Part shown: positions 3,030 to 64,000 of the stretch, piece by piece
Layout of the letters: each line of letters opens with the position of its first letter
Numbering within the stretch: the stretch's first letter is position 1
Assembly: GCA_021786945.1 (NCBI GenBank)
Contig: JAJYMK010000003.1
Coordinates: forward strand, 393,471 to 457,470
Source: a bacterium
Lineage (GTDB): Bacteria; Patescibacteriota; Minisyncoccia; UBA6257; 02-FULL-45-10c
Direction of reading: 5' to 3'
DNA: 64,000 bases
Notes under the pieces: model-generated
Told to the model about the DNA's origin: nothing
The model's database searches: none
The model's input: only the letters and a program-made list of their open reading frames with translations
Made by a program: the position numbers and the translations under genes

Positions 3030-3058
3030 TTGACGATTTTTTAATTTTATGGTAATAT
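3030..3058 (+). promoter_or_regulatory. sigma70-like promoter: TTGACG, 17-nt spacer, TGgTAATAT extended -10
   Basis: TTGACG at 3030-3035, 17-nt spacer, TAATAT at 3053-3058 preceded by TGG; lies about 80 nt upstream of the 3138 start. Confidence 0.5.
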
Positions 3059-3137: not shown

Positions 3138-4811
3138 ATGACAAATATTCTTAAAAATAGGTTTTTTATAGGCTTTTTAGCCTCTACTATTATTTCATTG
3201 GCTTCTTTAAGTTTGGCTCACGCCGCTGAAATAACAGTAACAACCTACAACGTTGATGGTAATACAATTTCCGCAAACAGCGCCCTTTTGGAAGGAATCG
3301 TTGACGTTACCAGTCATCCGGCCGAAGTATGGTTTGAATACGGAACCAGTAATTTCTTAGGGCAATCCACGGCTAAAAATATGGAAGGTTTGAATTTTTC
3401 TGCCAAAAAATTCGGCGCAGTAATTTCCGGTTTGACCGCCAATACTACTTATTATTTTCAAGCTGTAGGAAGAAATATCGATACAAATCTTGAAGTCAGA
3501 GGCCAACTTCTTACCTTCTCAACGAACAATACAGTAATACAGAGTAACTACTCAAATTCAACAGACGCAAACAGCGGATATTATACATCTAGTTCTGCTC
3601 CGGAAGTTACAACTAATCCGGCCATACTCGATTCAATAGATGTAAATTCCGCCACATTGGATTCATACATAAAATCAAACGGATCAAATACCGTAGCCTG
3701 GTTTGAATATGGAACCAATGATAGTCTTGGACAAGCAACTGAAGATTGGGGTGTAAGCGTAACCGCTTATCAAGTAGATTTCCAGAAAAAAATAACCGGG
3801 TTAATGCCGGATACAATTTATTATTTCAGGGCAGCTGCCAGAAACGACTACGGCACAATCTATGGAAGTACTTATGTGTTTAAAACAAAAGAAATAGCAA
3901 CCGGCATAACTTTTAGCCAGCCAACCGTCCTCACTTCTCCGGCGATGCTTATAAAAGACAACTCTGCCTTATTAAATGGTAGCGCTATAGCCAATAATGC
4001 CGAAACAAATGTCTGGTTTGAATGGAGCGAAGATCCAAATATGAATAATGGCGTAAATAGAAACGTTAGCCAAAGTATCGGCGCCGGTAGCAATGAAGTT
4101 TATGCCGCCTATTCACTTACCAATTTAACCGTAAATAAAACCTACTATTTTAGATTGGTTGCCCAAAACTCATATGGAACAACCAGAGGTAATATAAATA
4201 AATTTACAACTATTCACTACGTAGCCCCAACCCAAACCGTAAAGACTGTTAATGCTTCAAACGGAACTCAGGTGGCTCAGATATCGGTAAATAACGATGC
4301 GATATCGTTAAGTGGCGAATTCGACAACAATAATCCGAGAGCGGGAACGAAAACCGTCTACGCGCTAAGTTACACAAATAATACTAATTTGGTAATAAGA
4401 GACGCCGTTTTAAAAGTAACCCTTCCCAATGAGGTAAGCTACCTTGCCTCAAGCTTTGCTAATGTAAATCAGAATGGAAATACAATTACTTTGAAAATTG
4501 GCGATATAGCCGCGAAAGGAACAGGGTCTGCCAGCATAAGAGTAAGAATAACCGATCTTGCAAAAGCTCAGGTTATAAAATTTACCACAAATCTTTCCTA
4601 TAAGATTAACGGTAAATCAGGTGAGGATAATATCTCCAATGAATTAAAAGTCAGCGAATATTCCTTGGCTGCGTCAGCTCTTGATCTTCTTGGCACAATA
4701 CTTAACAATATTTTTATCGATCTTCTTCTTGGAATAATTATAGGTGCTTATGGATACCATATAATCAATAAACAAAAACAAGTTGTTGATACCGAAGATC
4801 CGCTAAAATAA
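3138..4811 (+). CDS. secreted cell-surface protein with three Fn3-like repeats of about 115 aa (WFEYGT...TYYF...RN), a DUF11-like domain and a C-terminal TM anchor
   Basis: N-terminal signal peptide; repeats containing VWFEYGTSNFLGQ / AWFEYGTNDSLGQ / VWFEWSEDPNMNNG and TTYYFQAVGRN / TIYYFRAAARN / KTYYFRLVAQN; hydrophobic C-terminus LLGIIIGAYGYHII. Confidence 0.6.
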   Translation: MTNILKNRFFIGFLASTIISLASLSLAHAAEITVTTYNVDGNTISANSALLEGIVDVTSHPAEVWFEYGTSNFLGQSTAKNMEGLNFSAKKFGAVISGLTANTTYYFQAVGRNIDTNLEVRGQLLTFSTNNTVIQSNYSNSTDANSGYYTSSSAPEVTTNPAILDSIDVNSATLDSYIKSNGSNTVAWFEYGTNDSLGQATEDWGVSVTAYQVDFQKKITGLMPDTIYYFRAAARNDYGTIYGSTYVFKTKEIATGITFSQPTVLTSPAMLIKDNSALLNGSAIANNAETNVWFEWSEDPNMNNGVNRNVSQSIGAGSNEVYAAYSLTNLTVNKTYYFRLVAQNSYGTTRGNINKFTTIHYVAPTQTVKTVNASNGTQVAQISVNNDAISLSGEFDNNNPRAGTKTVYALSYTNNTNLVIRDAVLKVTLPNEVSYLASSFANVNQNGNTITLKIGDIAAKGTGSASIRVRITDLAKAQVIKFTTNLSYKINGKSGEDNISNELKVSEYSLAASALDLLGTILNNIFIDLLLGIIIGAYGYHIINKQKQVVDTEDPLK

Positions 4812-4853: not shown

Positions 4854-4971
4854 ATTTGAATAAAGCCAGTAAAGTTTCACGCCATGCTGCCAATTCCGGC
4901 CCGTTAAATAAGACGTAAATAGTTATTCCACAAAATACCATTATTAATAAACCCAGTACGCGTTTCCACAT
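4852..4971 (-). CDS. small hydrophobic membrane peptide (39 aa, MWKRVLGLLIMVFCGITIYVLFNGPELAAWRETLLALFK), immediately downstream of leuS
   Basis: ATG at 4971 (minus); TM helix; N-terminus, ...IY(I/V)(V/L)... core and C-terminal FK-stop resemble the 2823-2970 peptide; hand-translated. Confidence 0.35.
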   Translation of the reverse strand: MWKRVLGLLIMVFCGITIYVLFNGPELAAWRETLLALFK

Positions 4972-5009
4972 ACTTTAAGTTTACGCTTTAATTTAAAATA
5001 GTAAAACTA

Positions 5010-7436
5010 TCAAATAACAATATTAATAAGCTTATCTTGTACAAAAATAATTTTTTTAGGCTTCTTGCTGCCCAAGAATTCCTTAACTCTCTCACGCGGC
5101 AAAACCATATTTTCTACATCCGGCTGAACCATGCCCTTCTTCAATATAATTTTATCCCTAAGCTTGCCATTGACTTGAATTAATAATTCAACGTCTTCAT
5201 CTTCTATAAGATGTTTATTGAATTCAGGCCAAGATTCTAAGTGAACCGATTTTTTATTCCCGATTTTTTGCCAAAGCTCTTCGGATATGTGCGGTGCAAA
5301 CGGAACAAGGATTTTAATGACATTTTCTGCCATTACCTTATTTATAAGATCGCTCTTCTTTTCCATTTCATTTAAAAGAATCATTAAGGCGGAAACGGCA
5401 GTATTGAATTTAAAAGCCGCTATATCTTCACCTACCTTCTTTATAGTCTTGTGCACCATTCTGTTAAGATCCTTAAAATCTTTTGGCGTAACATTTTCAG
5501 TCTTTGCCTTTTTATCAAATTTCAATTTTGCGAACAAATCATAAACCCTGTTCAAAAATCTATACGCACCAAGAATGCCAGTTGGATCCCAAGGACCACC
5601 CTGACTATACTCAGCCATAAAACAAAGATAAACTCTTACGGAATCCGCCCCGAACTTCTCAACTAATTCATCGGGGTCAACAACATTACCTCTTGATTTA
5701 GACATTTTTTGTCCGTCTGGACCGAGAATCATTCCCTGGTGACGAAGCGATAAAAATGGCTCTTTAAAATCAAGGTATCCCTCATCATGCAAAAACTTAG
5801 TAAAAAATCTTACGTACAAAAGATGCATCACTGCGTGCTCTGGACCACCAATATACATTTTTACCGGCAACCAACTTTTGATTTTATTGGAATCGGCAAA
5901 GTGTTTTTTATTTTTCGGATCAACATAACGCAAATAATACCAGGAAGAATCCACAAACGTATCCATGGTATCGGTCTCTCTTTCGGCGGGACCTCCACAT
6001 TCTGGGCATTTCACTTTCAGGAATTTTTCGGCTTTAGCCAAAGGAGACCTGCCCTTTTCATCCGGAGTATAGTCTTTAACTTTAGGCAAAACTACCGGTA
6101 AATCTTTTTCCGGAACAGGAACCATGCCGCATTCTTTGCAATAAATCATTGGGATTGGAGTACCCCAATAGCGCTGGCGGCTTATAAGCCAATCTCTGAA
6201 TTTATAATTTACTTTTTTCTTGGCACCGATAGATTCAACGATCCTATCCTTGGCAATATTGTTGGGAAGATTATCCAGATCACCGGAATTAATCATGACT
6301 CCATCACTCTCAAAAGCGGCGGTTAATTCACCATGACTCCCGTTTTCCGAAACTACCTGAATTATGGGAAGTTCGAATTTTTTGGCAAAATCAAAATCTC
6401 TCTGATCATGAGCCGGTACGGCCATTACCGCTCCAGTACCATACCCACCCAAAACATAATCTGAAACCCAAACCGGAATAACCTTTTTATTGAAAGGATT
6501 TATAACCTTAATTCCCTGAAGTTCAACCCCGCTCTTTTCTTTAACATTGGTAAGCCTATCCAATTCAGTTTTATGCTTAGCAGCCTCTATATAATCTCTT
6601 ACGCTATTTTTATTTCTTATTCTGGCTTCCAAAATTTTAATAAGCGGATGCTCTGGAGCCAAAACTAAATAAGAAACCCCCGGTAGCGTATCAGCTCTAG
6701 TGGTAAATACTTTTATTTTAAGTTCCGACTCCTCTATAGGAAAATCAATTTCGGCGCCCTCAGAACGGCCAATCCAATGCTTTTGCATGGCTTTGGTTTT
6801 TTCCGGCCAATCCAAAGTTTCCAAATCTTCAAGAAGTCTATCTGCATAATCGGTAATTTTTAAAAGCCACTGCTCCACTTCTTTTTGCTCTACAGGACCA
6901 TCACAACGCCAACATTTTCCGCCCTCAGCCTGTTCATTAGCCAAAACAGAATTACATTTTGGACACCAATTTGCCGTAACTTTCTTGCGATAAGCCAGGC
7001 CCTTTTTATACATCTGCAAAAAAATCCACTGATTCCATTTATAATATTCGGGTAAACAAGTAACGATCATTCTGGACCAATCATAAATATTACCTGTTCT
7101 TTCCAGCTGCTTTATCATGCTTTTGATATTTTCCAATGTCCACTTTTCCGGAGGCATACCATGTTTGATAGCCGCACCTTCTGCTGGAAGACCAAAGGAA
7201 TCGAAACCGAAAGGACTAAGTACATTATAACCCTCCATCCTTTTGAATCTGGCGAATACATCGGCACCGGCAAAATTATACCAATGGCCAATGTGCAAAT
7301 TCCCGGATGGATATGGGAACATTACCAAATGATAATAATTCTTTTTGCCCTTAACATTATCCTTCGCAACAAAAAGTTTTTTCTGCTTCCAATATTTCTG
7401 CCACTTCAGCTCTATTTTTTTATGATTGTAGGCCAT
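5010..7436 (-). CDS. leuS: leucyl-tRNA synthetase
   Basis: PYPSGNLHIGHWYNF class I HIGH-type motif, KMSKS, CP1 editing region, length 808 aa. Confidence 0.95.
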   Translation of the reverse strand: MAYNHKKIELKWQKYWKQKKLFVAKDNVKGKKNYYHLVMFPYPSGNLHIGHWYNFAGADVFARFKRMEGYNVLSPFGFDSFGLPAEGAAIKHGMPPEKWTLENIKSMIKQLERTGNIYDWSRMIVTCLPEYYKWNQWIFLQMYKKGLAYRKKVTANWCPKCNSVLANEQAEGGKCWRCDGPVEQKEVEQWLLKITDYADRLLEDLETLDWPEKTKAMQKHWIGRSEGAEIDFPIEESELKIKVFTTRADTLPGVSYLVLAPEHPLIKILEARIRNKNSVRDYIEAAKHKTELDRLTNVKEKSGVELQGIKVINPFNKKVIPVWVSDYVLGGYGTGAVMAVPAHDQRDFDFAKKFELPIIQVVSENGSHGELTAAFESDGVMINSGDLDNLPNNIAKDRIVESIGAKKKVNYKFRDWLISRQRYWGTPIPMIYCKECGMVPVPEKDLPVVLPKVKDYTPDEKGRSPLAKAEKFLKVKCPECGGPAERETDTMDTFVDSSWYYLRYVDPKNKKHFADSNKIKSWLPVKMYIGGPEHAVMHLLYVRFFTKFLHDEGYLDFKEPFLSLRHQGMILGPDGQKMSKSRGNVVDPDELVEKFGADSVRVYLCFMAEYSQGGPWDPTGILGAYRFLNRVYDLFAKLKFDKKAKTENVTPKDFKDLNRMVHKTIKKVGEDIAAFKFNTAVSALMILLNEMEKKSDLINKVMAENVIKILVPFAPHISEELWQKIGNKKSVHLESWPEFNKHLIEDEDVELLIQVNGKLRDKIILKKGMVQPDVENMVLPRERVKEFLGSKKPKKIIFVQDKLINIVI

Positions 7437-12495: not shown

Positions 12496-13806
12496 TTATT
12501 TAATTTTTTCAGATAAGTAATTTTTAAGTTCGGAAATTTTTATTCTTTCTTGCTTAGTAGTGTCCCTACTCCTAACTGTTACAGCACCATCCTCCAAAGA
12601 ATCAAAATCAACAGTGATACAAAACGGAGTTCCAATTTCGTCTTGGGAATAATAACGTTTTCCAACATTTCCTCTGTCGTCCCATGTAAGCATAAAATCT
12701 TTTCTCAAAGAATCATATATTTCTTTGGCTTTAGAAACCAATTCGGGTTTATTCTTCAAAAGAGGAAAAACAGCGGCTTTATAAGGAGCTAATTTATAAG
12801 GCAATTTTAAAACTAACCTTTCCGGATTGGAGTCGTCAAAAGAACTGGATAAAACAGCCAAAACCGTTCTATCCACCCCCCAAGTAGGCTCGATAACATG
12901 AGGGATAATTTTTTCGTTTGTTTCCGGATCGGCATAACTCAAATCTTCCTTGCTGGCAACAGAATGATTTTTAAGATCAAAGTCTGTCCTATAAGCAAGT
13001 CCATATAATTCTTTTTTGCCAAAAGGAAATTCATATTCAAAATCAATAGTTCTTTTTGAATAATGCGCTCTCTCGCCGTCTGGAACTTCGAATTCATGAA
13101 CTTTTTCCATTTCGATGCCAATTTCCTTCATCCATCCAATCATTTCTTTTCTCCACATTTCAAAAATAGATTGCCAATCTTCATCTTTTTTAGGCGGTTT
13201 GATAAAATACTCTATTTCCATCTGCTCGAACTCTCTTGTCCTGAAAATAAAGTTACCCGGCGTTATTTCATTCCTAAAAGCCTTTCCTATTTGGGCAATA
13301 CCGAAAGGCAATTTTTTACGCGTAGTCTGCAAAACATTCTTAAAATCAACAAACATCGCCTGAGCGGTTTCGGGCCTAAAATAAACGATATTGGCCGCTT
13401 CCTCAGCGGGACCAAGAAACGTCTTAAGCATAAGATTAAACTGCCTAGACTCCGTAAAACTATCTTTGGTCCCGCAATTCGGACATGGATCTTTTACATT
13501 AATCAGATCGGCACGGAATCTTTCATGGCATTTCTTGCAGTCAACTAATGGATCGCTGAAATTTTTCAAATGACCGCTAGCTTCCCAAACTTTCGGATTC
13601 ATAATCAAAGCCGCATCTATTCCTACCACATCATCACGGGATTGAACAAAACGCCTCCACCAAAGCTGCTTAATATTATTTTTTAATTCAACGCCAATAG
13701 GGCCATAATCCCAAGAATTAGCCAAGCCTCCATAAATTTCACTGCCGGGAAATACAAATCCACGTCTCTTGCACAGCGAAATTATTTTATCCATTTTTGA
13801 TTCCAT
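12496..13806 (-). CDS. glyS: glycyl-tRNA synthetase, dimeric alpha2 (archaeal/eukaryal-like) type
   Basis: class II aaRS motifs; N-terminus LCKRRGFVFPGSEIYGG...WDYGPIGVELKNNIK typical of GlyRS alpha2. Confidence 0.9.
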   Translation of the reverse strand: MESKMDKIISLCKRRGFVFPGSEIYGGLANSWDYGPIGVELKNNIKQLWWRRFVQSRDDVVGIDAALIMNPKVWEASGHLKNFSDPLVDCKKCHERFRADLINVKDPCPNCGTKDSFTESRQFNLMLKTFLGPAEEAANIVYFRPETAQAMFVDFKNVLQTTRKKLPFGIAQIGKAFRNEITPGNFIFRTREFEQMEIEYFIKPPKKDEDWQSIFEMWRKEMIGWMKEIGIEMEKVHEFEVPDGERAHYSKRTIDFEYEFPFGKKELYGLAYRTDFDLKNHSVASKEDLSYADPETNEKIIPHVIEPTWGVDRTVLAVLSSSFDDSNPERLVLKLPYKLAPYKAAVFPLLKNKPELVSKAKEIYDSLRKDFMLTWDDRGNVGKRYYSQDEIGTPFCITVDFDSLEDGAVTVRSRDTTKQERIKISELKNYLSEKIK

Positions 13807-13946
13807 ATGAGTCTATTTCAATAATAACTTCCAAACGCGATATAGGCAAATTTTAGACAGAACAAGGAGCAAGAAGGAAATTCATAGTTTGAACTATATT
13901 TCCGACGAGCGACTCCGTTATGTATAAAACTAGCCATATCCTTTCA

Positions 13947-14066
13947 GGTTGTTATATAAAATAAATGATTTCTTCGTTACTCCTCCTCGATGTGGCTATA
14001 GCCACCATCTCGTCGTCGTGCCTTGAACTTATTTATTTATATATACAACACGTTTAGGAATTATTA
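13947..14066 (-). ncRNA. structured element copy A in the glyS 5' leader, homologous to 63879-64000
   Basis: colinear about 70% identity with copy B; conserved TAATAATTCCTAA(A/G)CG(T/C)GTTG, CAAGGCA, CGACGAG, hairpin GTGGC-TATA-GCCAC (copy B: GTGGT-GTAT-ACCAC, a compensatory change), CGAGGAGG, ...AACC. Confidence 0.5.
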
Positions 14067-14087
14067 CTGAAATAGACTCCCAAAGAA

Positions 14088-14116
14088 TAAAACCGCCTAG
14101 TGAAAAGGCGGTTTTT
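14088..14116 (-). terminator. Rho-independent terminator downstream of the 14126-15829 gene
   Basis: AAAACCGCC-loop-GGCGGTTTT with a T-run on the minus strand. Confidence 0.65.
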
Positions 14117-44596: not shown

Positions 44597-44717
44597 TTAT
44601 AACCGGCGTAACCTACTTTCTCGCCCAACAAATTAGGACAATATCATCGGTCTTAAACATTTTCACTTCTCTGTTCGGAATGGGAAGAGGTGGGTCATGT
44701 TTAAGTAAAACACCAGC
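44597..44717 (-). rRNA. rrf: 5S ribosomal RNA
   Basis: reverse complement contains CCCATTCCGAACAGAGAAGTGAAA...GACCGATGATA, matching the 5S loop B/C consensus; terminal helix GCTGGTG/CGCCGGT. Confidence 0.7.
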
Positions 44718-44809
44718 TAAAAGAAAAATTCGTGGGGTTTCTTAATCAATCTCAAAGATAAATTCTAACTTAAGAGGTCAGAATCTCTTATACAAAACTT
44801 CAAAAAATT

Positions 44810-47800
44810 GAAATCTTGTATAAAAGAAAATCGGTCTATTAGTACTACTCGACTAAACACATTACTGTGCTTACATCTGTAGCCTATCAACGCAGTAGTC
44901 TTCTGCGGACCTAACACATAGTCTCAGGGTGGGCTTCGTGCTTAGATGCTTTCAGCGCTTATCCCTTCCGAGCAATAGCTACCCAGCATTTCAGTTGGTA
45001 CCAAAGCTGGCAGACCAGAGGCTCGTTCAATCCGGTCCTCTCGTACTAGGATCGACTCCCTTCAAGTGTTTATAAGTGTTCTTCACACTAACGCCTACAG
45101 CAGGTAGAGACCAACCTGTCTCACGACGGTTTGAACCCAGCTCACGTATCCTTTTAAATGGCGAACAGCCATACGCTTGGGACCTTCTCCAGCCCCGCGC
45201 TAGGATGAGCCGACATCGAGGTGCCGAGCTTCGTCGTCGATAGGGACTCTCGGACGAAACTAGCCTGTTATCCCCAGGGTAACTTTTAGCCGTTGTCTCC
45301 GACCTTTCTATAAAGAATCGTCGGGTCGCTAAGTTCCGCTTTCGCGTCTGCGCGACTTGTAGGTCTTGCAGTCAAGCTGGCTTGTGCCTTTACGCGTCCA
45401 GCCCGATTTCCATCCGGGCTAAGCCAACCTTGATAAACTCCTCCATTACTCTTTAGGAGGAAAATGCCCCATTTAAACTGTCCAGCAGGCACTGTCTCAG
45501 TCAGGCTTACAGGAAAACCCTGATTCCTAACCGGTTAGGCTTTAAAGAATTAAAAATGGGTGTTTCATTGGCGGATCCATTTACCCCGAAAGATAAACTT
45601 CAAATCCTACCCACTACGCTACGTATTAAACCTTTAAAGTCAATGCCAACACACAGTAAAGCTCCTGGGGTCTTTTCGTCTTGCTGCAGGTATCCCGCGT
45701 CTTCACGGGAATCGCATTTTCATCGAGCTCTTCGTTGAGACAGTTCTCCGATCATTACACCTTTCATGCGCTTCAGAACTTACCTGAAAAGGAATTGCGC
45801 TACCTTTGGACGGTTATAGTTACCGCCGACATTGACGAGGGCTTCGGGCGATAAGCACTATACATTGCTGCATAGCACCTTCACCGTTAACCTTCTCGCA
45901 TCGGTCAGGTGTCACCCCCTATACATCCACTTACGTGTTAGCAGGGAGTTGTGTTTTTGGTAAACAGTTGCCAGAGATACTTTAGCTGCGGCCCTTCTTG
46001 CGAAGGGCAGTCCTTATTGCGAACTTACGGACGCTTTTTTGCCGAGTTCCTTAACGAAGACTCACTCGTTCCCCTGAGGCTTCTCGCCTCACCCACCAGT
46101 GTCGGTTTACGGTACGATGTCTAATATATTAACCTTAGAAGTTTTTCTTGGAAGGCTCTTCATCTGTATTAGCTAAGTAAAAACTTAGCCTTACGTCAAT
46201 TCGCGAAACTTGCCATTAAAGGCAGATATCCGGATTTGCCTGGATACCGAATCTGAAAATCAGCGACGCCAAACCATTAAGGCGCACAGACTTATTTCCT
46301 CCGTCCCTCCCTCGAATATATCAGACGGGCCGGAATATTAACCGGCTTACCCTTCAGCTGCGGCTTTCGCCATGACCTTAGGATCGCCTAACCCGTGGTT
46401 GATTGCCATTGCCACGGAAACCTAGGATTTGCGGGGATTATGTTTCTCACATAATTTGGGATTACTTATACCAACATTCTCTCTTCCTAACGCTCCATCG
46501 CCCCTCGCGGGTACGACTTCACAGCAGATAGAAATGCTCTCCTACCAGATACTATCTTTACGATAGTAAATTCGCGCCTTCGGTATCTTGCTTAGCCCCG
46601 ATACATTTTTGGCGCAACCAACCATTGAATAGTGAGTTGTTACACACTCTTTAAAGGATGGCTACCTCTAAGCCAACCTCCTATCTGTCTATGGTTGATT
46701 ACTACCTTTTACACTTAGCAAGAATTTAGGGACCTTAGACGGCGATCTGGGCTCTTCCCCTCGCGACCGTGAAGCTTTGCCCCCACGGTCTAACTAGTAA
46801 TCACGATTCCTGGTATTCGGAGTTTGATTGGTCATCCGGTCTTTCGACCTGTGAGGACCATCCAGTGCTCTACCCCCAGAAAATTTAGGATTACCGCCAG
46901 TCCGAAAACTGTTTCGGAGAGAACCAGCTATCACTAAGCTCGATTAGCTTTTCACTTCTTACCCCAACTCATCCAAGGGTGTTGCACAACCCACTAGTTC
47001 GGACCTCCCCCTAATGTTTAGTTAGAGTTCATCCTGGTCAGGGCAAGCTCGCTTAGCTTCGGGTCTTACATAAACGACTGATTTCGCGCTATTAACACTC
47101 GGTTTCCCTACGGCTTCCCCGTCTCTACCGGGTTAGCCTTGCCGTTTACATAAAGTCGTTGGCTCATTCTTCAATAGGCACCACGTTAGCCGCAATGCAT
47201 CCGAAGATGCACTTTTAGCCTTCGAGTCCTTGTAAGCATATGGTTTCAGGTACTATTTCATCGCCCTCGCCGGGCTGCTTTTCACCTTTCCCTCACGGTA
47301 CTGGTTCACTATCGGTCATCAAAAGTATTTAGCCTCACGAGATTAGTACTCGTTGCTTCCTGCAAGGTTATGTGGCCTCGCAGTACTCAAGATAGATACT
47401 CATAAATGAGTAACTCCGGTCTTTCACCGGTAGAAACGGAAAAGATTGAATTTTTTTATTTACGAGGCTATCACTCCCTATGGCTCCTCTTTCCAGAGGA
47501 TTCAATTAAAATTCAATTTTGTAACTCTTCTCTTCAAACACAACGAATAATGAACCAGAAGAGTTCACTATTCGATGGTTTGAAAAAGTTTCTATCTTAC
47601 AACCCTCAAGACTTGATAACTGAAGGGCCTGAATTGTTCATCGAGTTTAATCCCGAATTCCATCTCCAGATTTCAGAAACCTTATCGAAAGTTTGGGCTA
47701 CTCCCTTTTCGCTCGCCGCTACTTGGGGAATCACTGTTGTTTTTTATTCTTCCGCTTACTGAGAAGTTTCACTTCAGCGGATACGCTCTTCATTTCTTAC

Positions 47801-47960
47801 GAAACAAAGCAATTGCGGTTTACGCAATTAGGTTACCCCATTAGGAAATCTCCGGATCAAAGGTTGCTAAGCACCTCCCCGAAGCTTATCGCAGCTACAC
47901 CACGTCCTTCATCGCCTTTTGATGCCAAGGCATCCACCATACGCCCTTAATTTAACGTTT
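44810..47960 (-). rRNA. rrl: 23S ribosomal RNA (about 3.15 kb, ends approximate), not linked to a 16S gene
   Basis: reverse complement aligns by eye to 23S landmarks from 5' GGATGCCTTGGC and AGTAGCGGCGAGCGAA through the GTP-ase centre, peptidyl-transferase region (GGATAACAGGCT, CTCGATGTCGGCTC) and sarcin-ricin loop (CCTAGTACGAGAGGACC). Confidence 0.9.
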
Positions 47961-63559: not shown

Positions 63560-63751
63560 ATAAATAAATATATAAAATATATCTTTAAATATAATATACT
63601 TTAAATTCAAAAAATTCCATACCAGGCAGTGAAAATTCAATAGTAAAAAAAATATACATAGCAATTATTTTAGACGGTTATTAAAATTAAATTTAATTTG
63701 CCCGATATTCATATATTGATTGAATTTCTACTGCCCGGCATAGCCCATTGA

Positions 63752-63811
63752 CCCCGCACCTTTAGAAAATTAACAAAAAAAACAAAGTCTTGATTCTCTA
63801 AAAGTGCGGGG
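63752..63811. repeat. near-perfect 18-bp inverted repeat (CCCCGCACCTTTAGAAAA ... TTCTCTAAAAGTGCGGGG) with a 24-nt A-rich loop; TTGACT follows immediately
   Basis: read directly from the sequence: 17 of 18 positions complementary; not followed by a T-run on either strand, so not a canonical terminator. Confidence 0.5.
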
Positions 63812-63878
63812 TTGACTTACGTTTCCTAAGTAGTAACCTAAAAGTAGGAGAAGTTCTTTAATAAAAAAACTTATCTTG

Positions 63879-64000
63879 CTAATAATTCCTAAGCGCGTTG
63901 CTGAGATAAGTTGAAAATTTCAAGGCATGCCGACGAGCTAGTGGTGTATACCACAGCGAGGAGGCATAACACAGAAATTTTCAATTCTTAGATAGCAACC
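63879..64000 (+). ncRNA. structured element copy B, homologous to 13947-14066, truncated by the window end
   Basis: colinear blocks TAATAATTCCTAAGCGCGTTG, CAAGGCA, CGACGAG, hairpin GTGGT-GTAT-ACCAC, CGAGGAGG, ...AGCAACC; block lengths match copy A almost exactly (21/20/7/10/27/36 vs 21/20/7/10/27/35). Confidence 0.5.

Follow-up and report, generated by a model that had tools for sequence, protein, structure and literature searches.

RUP elements of Streptococcus pneumoniae have been assigned to the insertion sequence IS630-Spn1 on the likeness of their ends and on their insertion at TA (PMC2229807). Together with other MITEs derived from IS630, such as Nezha of cyanobacteria, they resemble the element described here in being non-coding, in possessing inverted ends, IS630-like and with TA at their borders in its short-form subfamilies, and in being present in many copies. 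RUP is 107 bp long and found in one species group, whereas the present element is 165-270 nt long, is distributed amongst at least five phyla and possesses a covarying internal module that the parent insertion sequences lack. To our knowledge, no ordinary MITE keeps a 60-nt internal module across phyla. Correia elements (also NEMIS) of Neisseria carry outward sigma-70-like promoters, and their inverted ends are cut by RNase III (PMC10969869). They are often located just 5' of genes, are co-transcribed with them and have ends that pair, and they may by analogy serve as a working model for the copy of the present element found upstream of glyS (copy A, below). Correia elements contain an IHF site and are genus-specific; the present element, in contrast, contains a structured RNA core that is conserved.

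Many short, unclassified rRNA insertions that contain no ORF were reported in a survey of CPR genomes, and cutting by RNase III was suggested for them (PMC11270868). Two of the copies treated below (L110 and L111) are like 23S IVSs in that they add a stem-loop to 23S rRNA where the 23S rRNA of the genome under study has none. The element differs from IVSs in being found also in mRNA leaders and intergenic regions and in having transposon ends; cutting by RNase III may be expected of it by analogy. We know of no core common to classical IVSs across phyla. In an IStron an IS200/IS605 element is joined to a group I intron, and its likeness to the present element lies in the idea of mobile DNA that removes itself from RNA and so makes its insertions neutral. 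The present element, however, carries no intron or ribozyme signature by Rfam search and is associated with another transposase family, and its splicing would be hypothetical. T-box leaders (RF00230), finally, are long structured RNAs that also lie in sense orientation ahead of glyS, whereas the element has no T-box sequence or antiterminator, is not kept at glyS and occurs at unrelated loci.

The DNA analysed here, referred to as the window, is a stretch of 64,000 nucleotides from a Patescibacteria MAG, and it contains one copy of the element on the minus strand ahead of glyS (copy A) and another on the plus strand at the window end (copy B). Both are probably non-autonomous MITEs of the IS630/Tc1-mariner kind in a long form of about 270 nt. 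The family to which they belong is unlike known bacterial MITEs in its covarying RNA module shared across phyla, its dimeric long form with inverted modules and its insertions in rRNA. A preliminary description of the window had reported two homologous structured segments of 120 nt, and these were found again in the same places: minus-strand positions 14066 to 13947 and plus-strand positions 63879 to 64000 align colinearly in MAFFT with 72% identity and one 1-nt indel. In the 64-kb window there are exactly two matches to the block TAATAATTCCTAARCGYGTTG and exactly two to the pattern CAAGGCA-N3-CGACGAG-N(10-30)-CGAGGAGG, against shuffle expectations of 0.01 and 0.00, respectively. Homology extends well past the 120 nt, the element being about 270 nt long in each copy, and the full-length copies are 79% identical over approximately 265 nt. 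Copy A (GAGTCTATTTCAG...CTGAAATAGACTC, about 271 nt) occupies positions 13809-14079 of the minus strand, as delimited by alignment with copy B, by empty sites in relatives and by inverted-repeat alignment of its ends. Copy B occupies positions 63866-64000 of the plus strand and is truncated by the window end, beyond which homology runs for another 140 nt. The sequence of this remainder was taken from contig DAIBYD010000001.1 of GCA_027424165.1 (stretch L001), where the full element lies at 2173 to 1902, equivalent to window positions 63866-64137.

In both copies homology stops shortly 5' of a start codon, that of glyS for copy A and that of a 117-aa ORF for copy B. Copy A separates the start codon of glyS from the terminator of the gene upstream. 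The terminator-like hairpin and T-run of this 567-aa gene (14089-14115, minus strand) end about 10 nt before copy A, so that there is no space for a promoter between them. Between the right end of copy A and glyS there are 2 nt if the first ATG (13806) is taken and 14 nt if the second (13794) is taken; NCBI calls the second, and this start corresponds to a protein of 432 aa (P0001, 100% identical). No ORF of at least 60 aa was found in the interior of copy A. Copy B is separated by 11 nt from the start codon of the 117-aa ORF, which possesses an AAGGAGG ribosome-binding site of its own. According to the preliminary description, a second aminoacyl-tRNA synthetase or translation gene at this place would speak for a regulatory leader; the gene there is the 117-aa ORF, for which a Pfam search gave no match.

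Further copies were sought by pattern scans of species-representative genomes and JGI metagenomes, followed by a covariance model of the core (R1). Within the window, R1 recognises only the two copies as core matches, with 86.6 bits for copy A and 77.3 bits for copy B (63896-63993, plus strand). On the two scans R1 gave 89 and 58 matches at E<1e-3, and none at that threshold among loci that match the pattern by chance; the high-GC scan matches are genuine copies of the element by R1. More than 130 copies were found beyond the window pair by pattern scan and covariance model, and the family is not lineage-specific but is distributed amongst at least five phyla. Its carriers in Patescibacteria are three Saccharibacteria MAGs, one Harrisonbacteria MAG and other MAGs. 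The Myxococcota MAG CAWHVG01 contains about 36 loci, many of them with identical cores, and three other Myxococcota MAGs contain 6-9 loci each, while Longimicrobiales (Gemmatimonadota), Planctomycetota, Elusimicrobia and an alphaproteobacterial lineage are represented by one MAG each. The only pattern match in viral contigs was rejected by R1, and BLAST against plasmids and phages gave no match to the element. That no known family could be assigned, as reported earlier, holds for every form of the element. It is unmatched in Rfam when the whole window is searched at gathering thresholds and both copies at E<=10, and also when nine Patescibacteria loci, sixteen high-GC loci and one short form are searched at E<=10. 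A resemblance to tmRNA, noted earlier for a part of copy B, did not hold, as ARAGORN found no tmRNA in the window and Rfam tmRNA gave no match at E<=10. The searchable literature, queried with core sequence strings and by topic, contains no description of the family.

The borders of the short forms resemble those of IS630-type transposons. Amongst 52 distinct short forms with the ends GTSNCCS...SGGNSAC, TA is present on both flanks in 38, often within CTAG, on the 5' flank in 44 and on the 3' flank in 43. Long forms possess TA at both ends in L165, L105 and L171 and at one end in about eight others. Copies A and B have no clean TA duplication. The junctions of copy A read GG|GAGTC...GACTC|AT, and the lack of a clean TA there indicates that the junctions have decayed or that the ends are placed 1-2 nt off. 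At locus L038 an insertion sequence abuts the element, and its right end (GTCCCCCGGATCCCTGATTTCG) matches the element end (GTCCCCCGTATCCGTGATTCCT) at 19 of 22 positions; at L143, in a different subfamily, the insertion sequence end GTCACCCGGATCAGG and the element end GTCACCCGGAACAGC agree in 13 of 15 bases, so that matches of this kind come from two Myxococcota subfamilies only. The adjoining ORFs encode IS630-family transposases with DDE_3 and HTH domains, scoring 287 (L038) and 219 bits with NF033545 (cut-off 100). No IS630 transposase was found in the 64-kb window, in L001 or in any Patescibacteria locus examined, and mobilisation of the element in Patescibacteria by IS630-type enzymes is what we infer from family membership. 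As in MITEs generally, the element is short (165-270 nt), non-coding, bounded by terminal inverted repeats and multi-copy, with filled and empty sites found for copy A, copy B and two insertions in 23S rRNA.

The empty site for copy A is found in four sets of relatives with GlyRS 87-93% identical, in which glyS is preceded by 65-75 nt, compared with 320 nt in the window. These relatives share the gene order CLIPPER-like or GT2 gene, glyS, peptidase M16 and AI-2E transporter. The flanks align to both junctions, reading TTATTCTTTT.A.ATATGGAATC in the relatives (L191, L195, L197) and TTATTCTTTGG[271 nt]ATATGGAATC in the window, and ATATGG abuts the right junction in both. As the element is missing at glyS in syntenic relatives, copy A is an insertion and not a conserved leader. 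The structured glyS leader of this MAG is a recent transposon insertion, unfit for drawing conclusions on the regulation of aminoacyl-tRNA synthetases. Copy B is likewise missing from the syntenic relatives L199 and L201, where R1 is silent; relatives of this type encode a DedA (VTT-domain) protein 81% identical and share the order DedA gene, tRNA-Gln, small ORF. Three Logan contigs break within the core.

Other copies are inserted in a variety of genes and gene borders. In L110 the element lies in sense orientation near the 3' end of 23S rRNA, between positions 3047 and 3050 of the window 23S, and in L111 it lies antisense in 23S rRNA in place of window-23S positions 1237-1273. One of these insertions is located where helix 98 is missing and the other in a variable stretch, and the 23S rRNA of the window itself is the empty site for both. 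The copy in L114 directly adjoins the stop codon of rpmI on one side and the ATG of rplT on the other, leaving 0 nt over, and that in L088 lies between gap (GAPDH) and rpiB, where the flanking TA and the first G of the element form the gap stop codon. L013 carries its copy inside an ORF, for which PRA-PH is at most a tentative family (E = 0.078) and PDB and NCBIfam gave no match. The copy of L074 is found in a tRNA-Pro-like remnant, and L165 possesses a second, unrelated copy 55 nt upstream of another glyS. The genes downstream are varied, amongst them glyS, rplT, rpiB, the 117-aa ORF and a 71-aa ORF, and rRNA or the tRNA remnant harbours some of the copies; the element does not keep to a position upstream of orthologous or functionally related genes, as a riboswitch or other cis-regulatory leader would.

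The full elements fold with z scores of -4.7 and -7.8 relative to shuffles, and copies A and B have 75 predicted pairs in common, of which 15 are compensated between them. Folding models give the element a Y shape, with a closing stem of about 30 bp (P1), arm 1, a small tetraloop hairpin and arm 2. In copy A, on the minus strand, the 5' strand of P1 is the left inverted end (14050-14079), which includes the first of the blocks aligned in the preliminary description, and its 3' strand is the right inverted end (13809-13838), defined by RNAalifold and inverted-repeat alignment. RNAalifold pairs columns 1-21 with 234-254, and inverted-repeat alignment lengthens the pairing to GAGTC/GACTC. In each of 17 long forms analysed, both window copies included, the inverted ends can be aligned along 20-34 nt, and they begin with G; these ends were set by local inverted-repeat alignment, RNAduplex having over-extended them. 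The short form, about 165 nt in length and the majority of high-GC copies, folds into one rod-like hairpin that carries the core at the tip.

Arm 1 (13953-14050, minus strand) is the conserved core module and is recognised by R1 with E = 2e-22. Its parts are, in order, a basal stem, then UCAAGGCA, then a helix in which C-G pairs alternate with tandem G·A pairs and whose strands are CGACGACGAG opposite CGAGGAGGAG, with a variable hairpin (14009-13989), and UAACGAAGAAAU. In the family as a whole the core begins with UCAAGG(C/A)A, continues with the helix 5' C-GA-C-GA-C-GA-G / 3' G-AG-G-AG-G-AG-C, which is capped by a hairpin of free sequence, and ends with (U/C/A)RACG.AGA. This helix is built of single C-G pairs interspersed with groups of two to four G·A pairs in tandem. 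Two Watson-Crick pairs stand in for the third G·A unit in copy B and in several homologues, as would be expected if the helix is real. This C-G/tandem G·A helix is an unusual and easily testable RNA motif. As had been described, the closing pair of the variable hairpin is changed from C:G to U:A between copies A and B with pairing kept, and a second compensated pair is found in the same hairpin just below the bulge (GAU/AUC and GCU/AGC). A small ORF in the core was considered for the 3-nt periodicity and for UGA or UAA often following GAGGAGG, and was ruled out, since there is no start codon, the stop position may also be AGA or CAA, and the hairpin covaries.

The tetraloop hairpin between the arms (CCUGAAAGG, 13940-13948, minus strand) was located by its sequence and by an alignment of ten long forms, and it reads CCC-UUCG-GGG or CCC-GAAG-GGG in homologues. 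Arm 2 (13838-13936) is matched by R1 on the opposite, plus strand with 23.2 bits (E = 5e-4), and an inverted module in arm 2 is recognised in every long form with 17-56 bits; judged by these matches, arm 2 repeats the core module in inverted and degenerate form. The complement of CGACGAG (14015-14009) pointed out in the preliminary description does exist on the minus strand, CTCGTCG at 13909-13903, 106 nt further on, and had been taken to suggest a larger fold. The complementarity stands, and its source is the inverted module in arm 2. A pseudoknot between arm 1 (CGACGAG, CGAGGAGG) and arm 2 (CUCGUCG, CCUCCUCG) is not supported, for the same reason and also because arm 2 has drifted in copy B, L114 and L110 with no compensating change in arm 1. 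A constant flip from C-G to G-C between arms 1 and 2 is left over by the account of arm 2 as an inverted copy.

Conservation of pairing was analysed across the family. Amongst 23 diverse cores aligned with MAFFT, 76.6% of cells are paired; amongst 79 distinct model-aligned sequences, an alignment that leans towards structure, the value is 85.2%, and changes on both sides are found in 26 of 27 pairs. The observed covariation was reached by none of 500 shuffles, and pairing falls to 33-43% in controls with slid partners. The earlier statement that the structure is under selection, made from one hairpin, is borne out by the compensated pairs between the copies and by covariation throughout the family. 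Pairing is conserved across phyla, and something besides transposition is selected in the element; compensatory change has preserved this MITE module in lineages as far apart as Patescibacteria and Myxococcota, and selection on it extends beyond transposase binding.

Asymmetry between the strands was measured by replacing the core with a GAAA loop and folding the terminal stem alone for each strand in 20 clusters of less than 85% mutual identity. The terminal stem contains 74 G·U pairs on the module strand and 37 on the other, with mean energies of -43.7 and -38.0 kcal/mol, respectively (Wilcoxon p = 0.004, for clusters that are phylogenetically non-independent and include one chance match, L098). 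The autonomous insertion sequences that adjoin copies carry no core. The conserved module lies on the mRNA strand in seven of seven low-GC copies in an mRNA context (copy A, copy B, L013, L029, L088, L114 and L165), a split made post hoc, while it is antisense in L074 and L111, both of which are stable-RNA genes. The strand asymmetry, the insertion sequences without core and the orientation towards mRNA together favour selection acting on the module strand when folded as a single strand, in the simplest case as a transcript.

On this evidence a working model may be proposed in which an IS630-family transposase acting in trans pasted the copies into their sites. At glyS the element would either be transcribed within the mRNA, by read-through of the terminator and the element, or contain the transcription start, since the terminator ends about 10 nt before copy A. 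In the latter case the right arm of the element may supply an outward promoter to glyS. A consensus scan gives a candidate, TTGCCT-17-TATTAT, in the 3' arm directed towards glyS (13821-13849, minus strand), in a scan whose number of sites is at shuffle level (3 against 1.7±1.2). Hexamers resembling TTGCCT and TATTAT were seen by eye at the same place in L029 and L088. The Y fold would rejoin the flanks by way of its closing stem of about 30 bp, and this may be why insertions at a distance of 0-5 nt from a start codon, or in the narrow gaps of dense gene clusters, are tolerated. By analogy with Correia elements the closing stem is a likely substrate of RNase III, whose cutting would be needed for the copies in 23S rRNA. 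As a best guess, the G·A-rich core may bind a protein or act as a processing signal. Should the module neutralise insertions at the level of RNA, this would explain how transposons persist in genomes of about 0.5-1 Mb with hardly any intergenic DNA to spare.

It is possible, though improbable, that the element goes further and removes itself from RNA, as an IS630-type counterpart of the IStron. The core, together with the closing stem, would then either be a new ribozyme or call in a host nuclease, with or without a ligase, for excision or precise processing of the element in transcripts. The closing stem does juxtapose the flanks in every copy, and copies are found in 23S rRNA, in the ORF of L013 and in the gap between rpmI and rplT, where no nucleotide is spare. 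The agreement of module and mRNA strands in all seven mRNA contexts, the greater stability of stems on the module strand and a cross-phylum core beyond what transposition alone accounts for also speak for such removal. If it were true, insertions at start codons, in ORFs and in rRNA would be silent, and this capacity would be common to Patescibacteria and Myxococcota. Against it stand the lack of likeness to ribozyme and intron families of Rfam and the orientation of L111 and L074, where the gene is antisense to the strong module. At the 23S sites plain expansion, or cutting by RNase III with no ligation, suffices, and the restoration of the frame in L013 is trivially true for any insertion. 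A group I or group II intron in particular was ruled out, as the element is unmatched in a search that does pick up a true group I intron at another place in the 23S rRNA of L111, and the antisense copy in rRNA also argues against this.

A second alternative, to which a low probability is likewise given, places all function at the level of DNA, with the inverted repeats and the core serving transposase binding or a DNA hairpin and the RNA fold being a functionless by-product. It accords with TA flanks and ends like those of insertion sequences, with recent bursts of identical copies and with insertions in both orientations in stable-RNA genes. Compensatory change, however, is found along the whole rod, far past the 20-28 bp of a transposase site, and the neighbouring autonomous insertion sequences do without the core. 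The twofold excess of G·U pairs on the module strand also argues against it, as the demands of double-stranded DNA would be symmetric, and some copies have Watson-Crick pairs in place of the tandem G·A helix, an exchange that typifies helices formed by a single strand.

That the element is a lineage-specific cis-regulatory leader of glyS, T-box-like or a riboswitch, is hardly credible in spite of the sense orientation of copy A directly 5' of glyS, the second such site in L165, the GGC within UCAAGGCA and the UGGA within the 3' strand of the closing stem. None of the four sets of close syntenic relatives has the element 5' of glyS, the GGC triplet may be replaced by GGA, GAC, GAA or UGA whatever gene lies downstream, copies are found in rRNA, between ribosomal protein genes and by the dozen in Myxococcota, the T-box is unmatched at E<=10, and two glyS sites amongst about 16 low-GC copies are expected by chance with p of approximately 0.15. 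The UGGA could presumably pair with the UCCA 3' end of tRNA-Gly. A GGC specifier combined with such pairing was nevertheless ruled out by the empty sites and the variable triplet, and the element is not a sensor for glycine or tRNA-Gly. The T-box-like leader suggested in the preliminary description accordingly falls with the missing RF00230 match (E<=10), the variable triplet in UCAA-NNN-A and the empty glyS sites, and its broader proposal of a lineage-specific cis-regulatory RNA is contradicted by unrelated contexts, several phyla and the same empty sites. The small-RNA gene family offered as another possibility comes nearer, but the repeat is borne by a transposon with TA-flanked IS630-like ends. 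As a regulator of glyS the finding is refuted; as a new structured RNA motif borne by a transposon it deserves follow-up.

Clustering of the ORFs within 2 kb of the copies yielded only Ser/Thr kinases, sigma-54 activators and IS630 transposases. Ser/Thr kinases and sigma-54 activators are abundant in Myxococcota generally.

Within the G·A helix of the element, the two central C-G pairs (41-115 and 44-112 of alignment A6) are replaced by G-C in every antisense, or arm-2, module. This flip extends to all long forms, including copy A of the window (arm 2, 13838-13936), and its consequence is that the strands of arm 1 and arm 2 are perfectly complementary in a crossing register but mismatched when paired as a single giant hairpin would require.

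Two copies lie between protein genes. At locus L114 the element (3690-3956) lies between the TAA stop codon of rpmI and the ATG of rplT, and accounts exactly for the gap between the two genes, with no spare bases. At L088 the element (6948-7213) lies between gap (GAPDH) and rpiB, and the TAG stop codon of gap is composed of the flanking TA and the first G of the element; without the insertion, gap would extend about 14 codons into rpiB. Other copies are found within genes or their remnants. The copy at L013 (6597-6870) splits an ORF, in the order MRYNKLVRDKIPEHI, element, CKGVIPITHIADDKEYW..., and a single frame is regained once the element and one TA are taken out; the only family match of the encoded protein is a weak one to PRA-PH (E = 0.078). 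At L074 an intact tRNA-Pro(CGG) is followed directly by a degenerate tRNA-Pro-like remnant, and the copy (4929-5198) lies within this remnant, antisense to local transcription.

A copy of another subfamily (L165, 805-1081), whose two ends both carry CTAG, precedes a further gene for glycyl-tRNA synthetase by 55 nt; this is the same gene that follows copy A in the window. This shared position is probably a coincidence (p ~0.15). The window glyS possesses two in-frame ATGs, 12 nt apart (13792-13806, minus strand), the second of which is the start in NCBI and in most relatives (432 aa). No recognisable ribosome-binding site precedes either ATG in the window genome or in the element-free relatives.

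The search pattern also matched a conserved stretch, TCAAGGGAATTCGACGAGTATGAAYTACCGAGGAGGGGTAAG, in contigs of Caldivirga and hot-spring metagenomes that have neighbouring genes in common (L019, L129, L130, L134, L138-L140, L174, L181 and L184). These are ruled out as copies and considered unrelated to the element, since R1, the covariance model of its core, rejects them.

On one side of copy B, between it and tRNA-Gln, lies an 80-nt inverted repeat (63743-63822; GACCCCGCACCTTTAGAAAA...CTCTAAAAGTGCGGGGTTGAC). The syntenic relatives without copy B, L199 and L201, carry another hairpin complex at this position.

In the rRNA region of the window (44601-47960, minus strand), the 23S rRNA is 3141 nt long against 2925 nt in the model. 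Its domain I/II contains insertions that do not align, about 71, 80 and 54 nt in length, in none of which R1 found a match. The 5S rRNA comes next after the 23S rRNA, and 16S rRNA is absent from the 64-kb window. The element-bearing Saccharibacteria 23S rRNA of L111 also holds a group I intron at 4151-4477 on the minus strand, matched by Rfam RF00028 at 62.9 bits.
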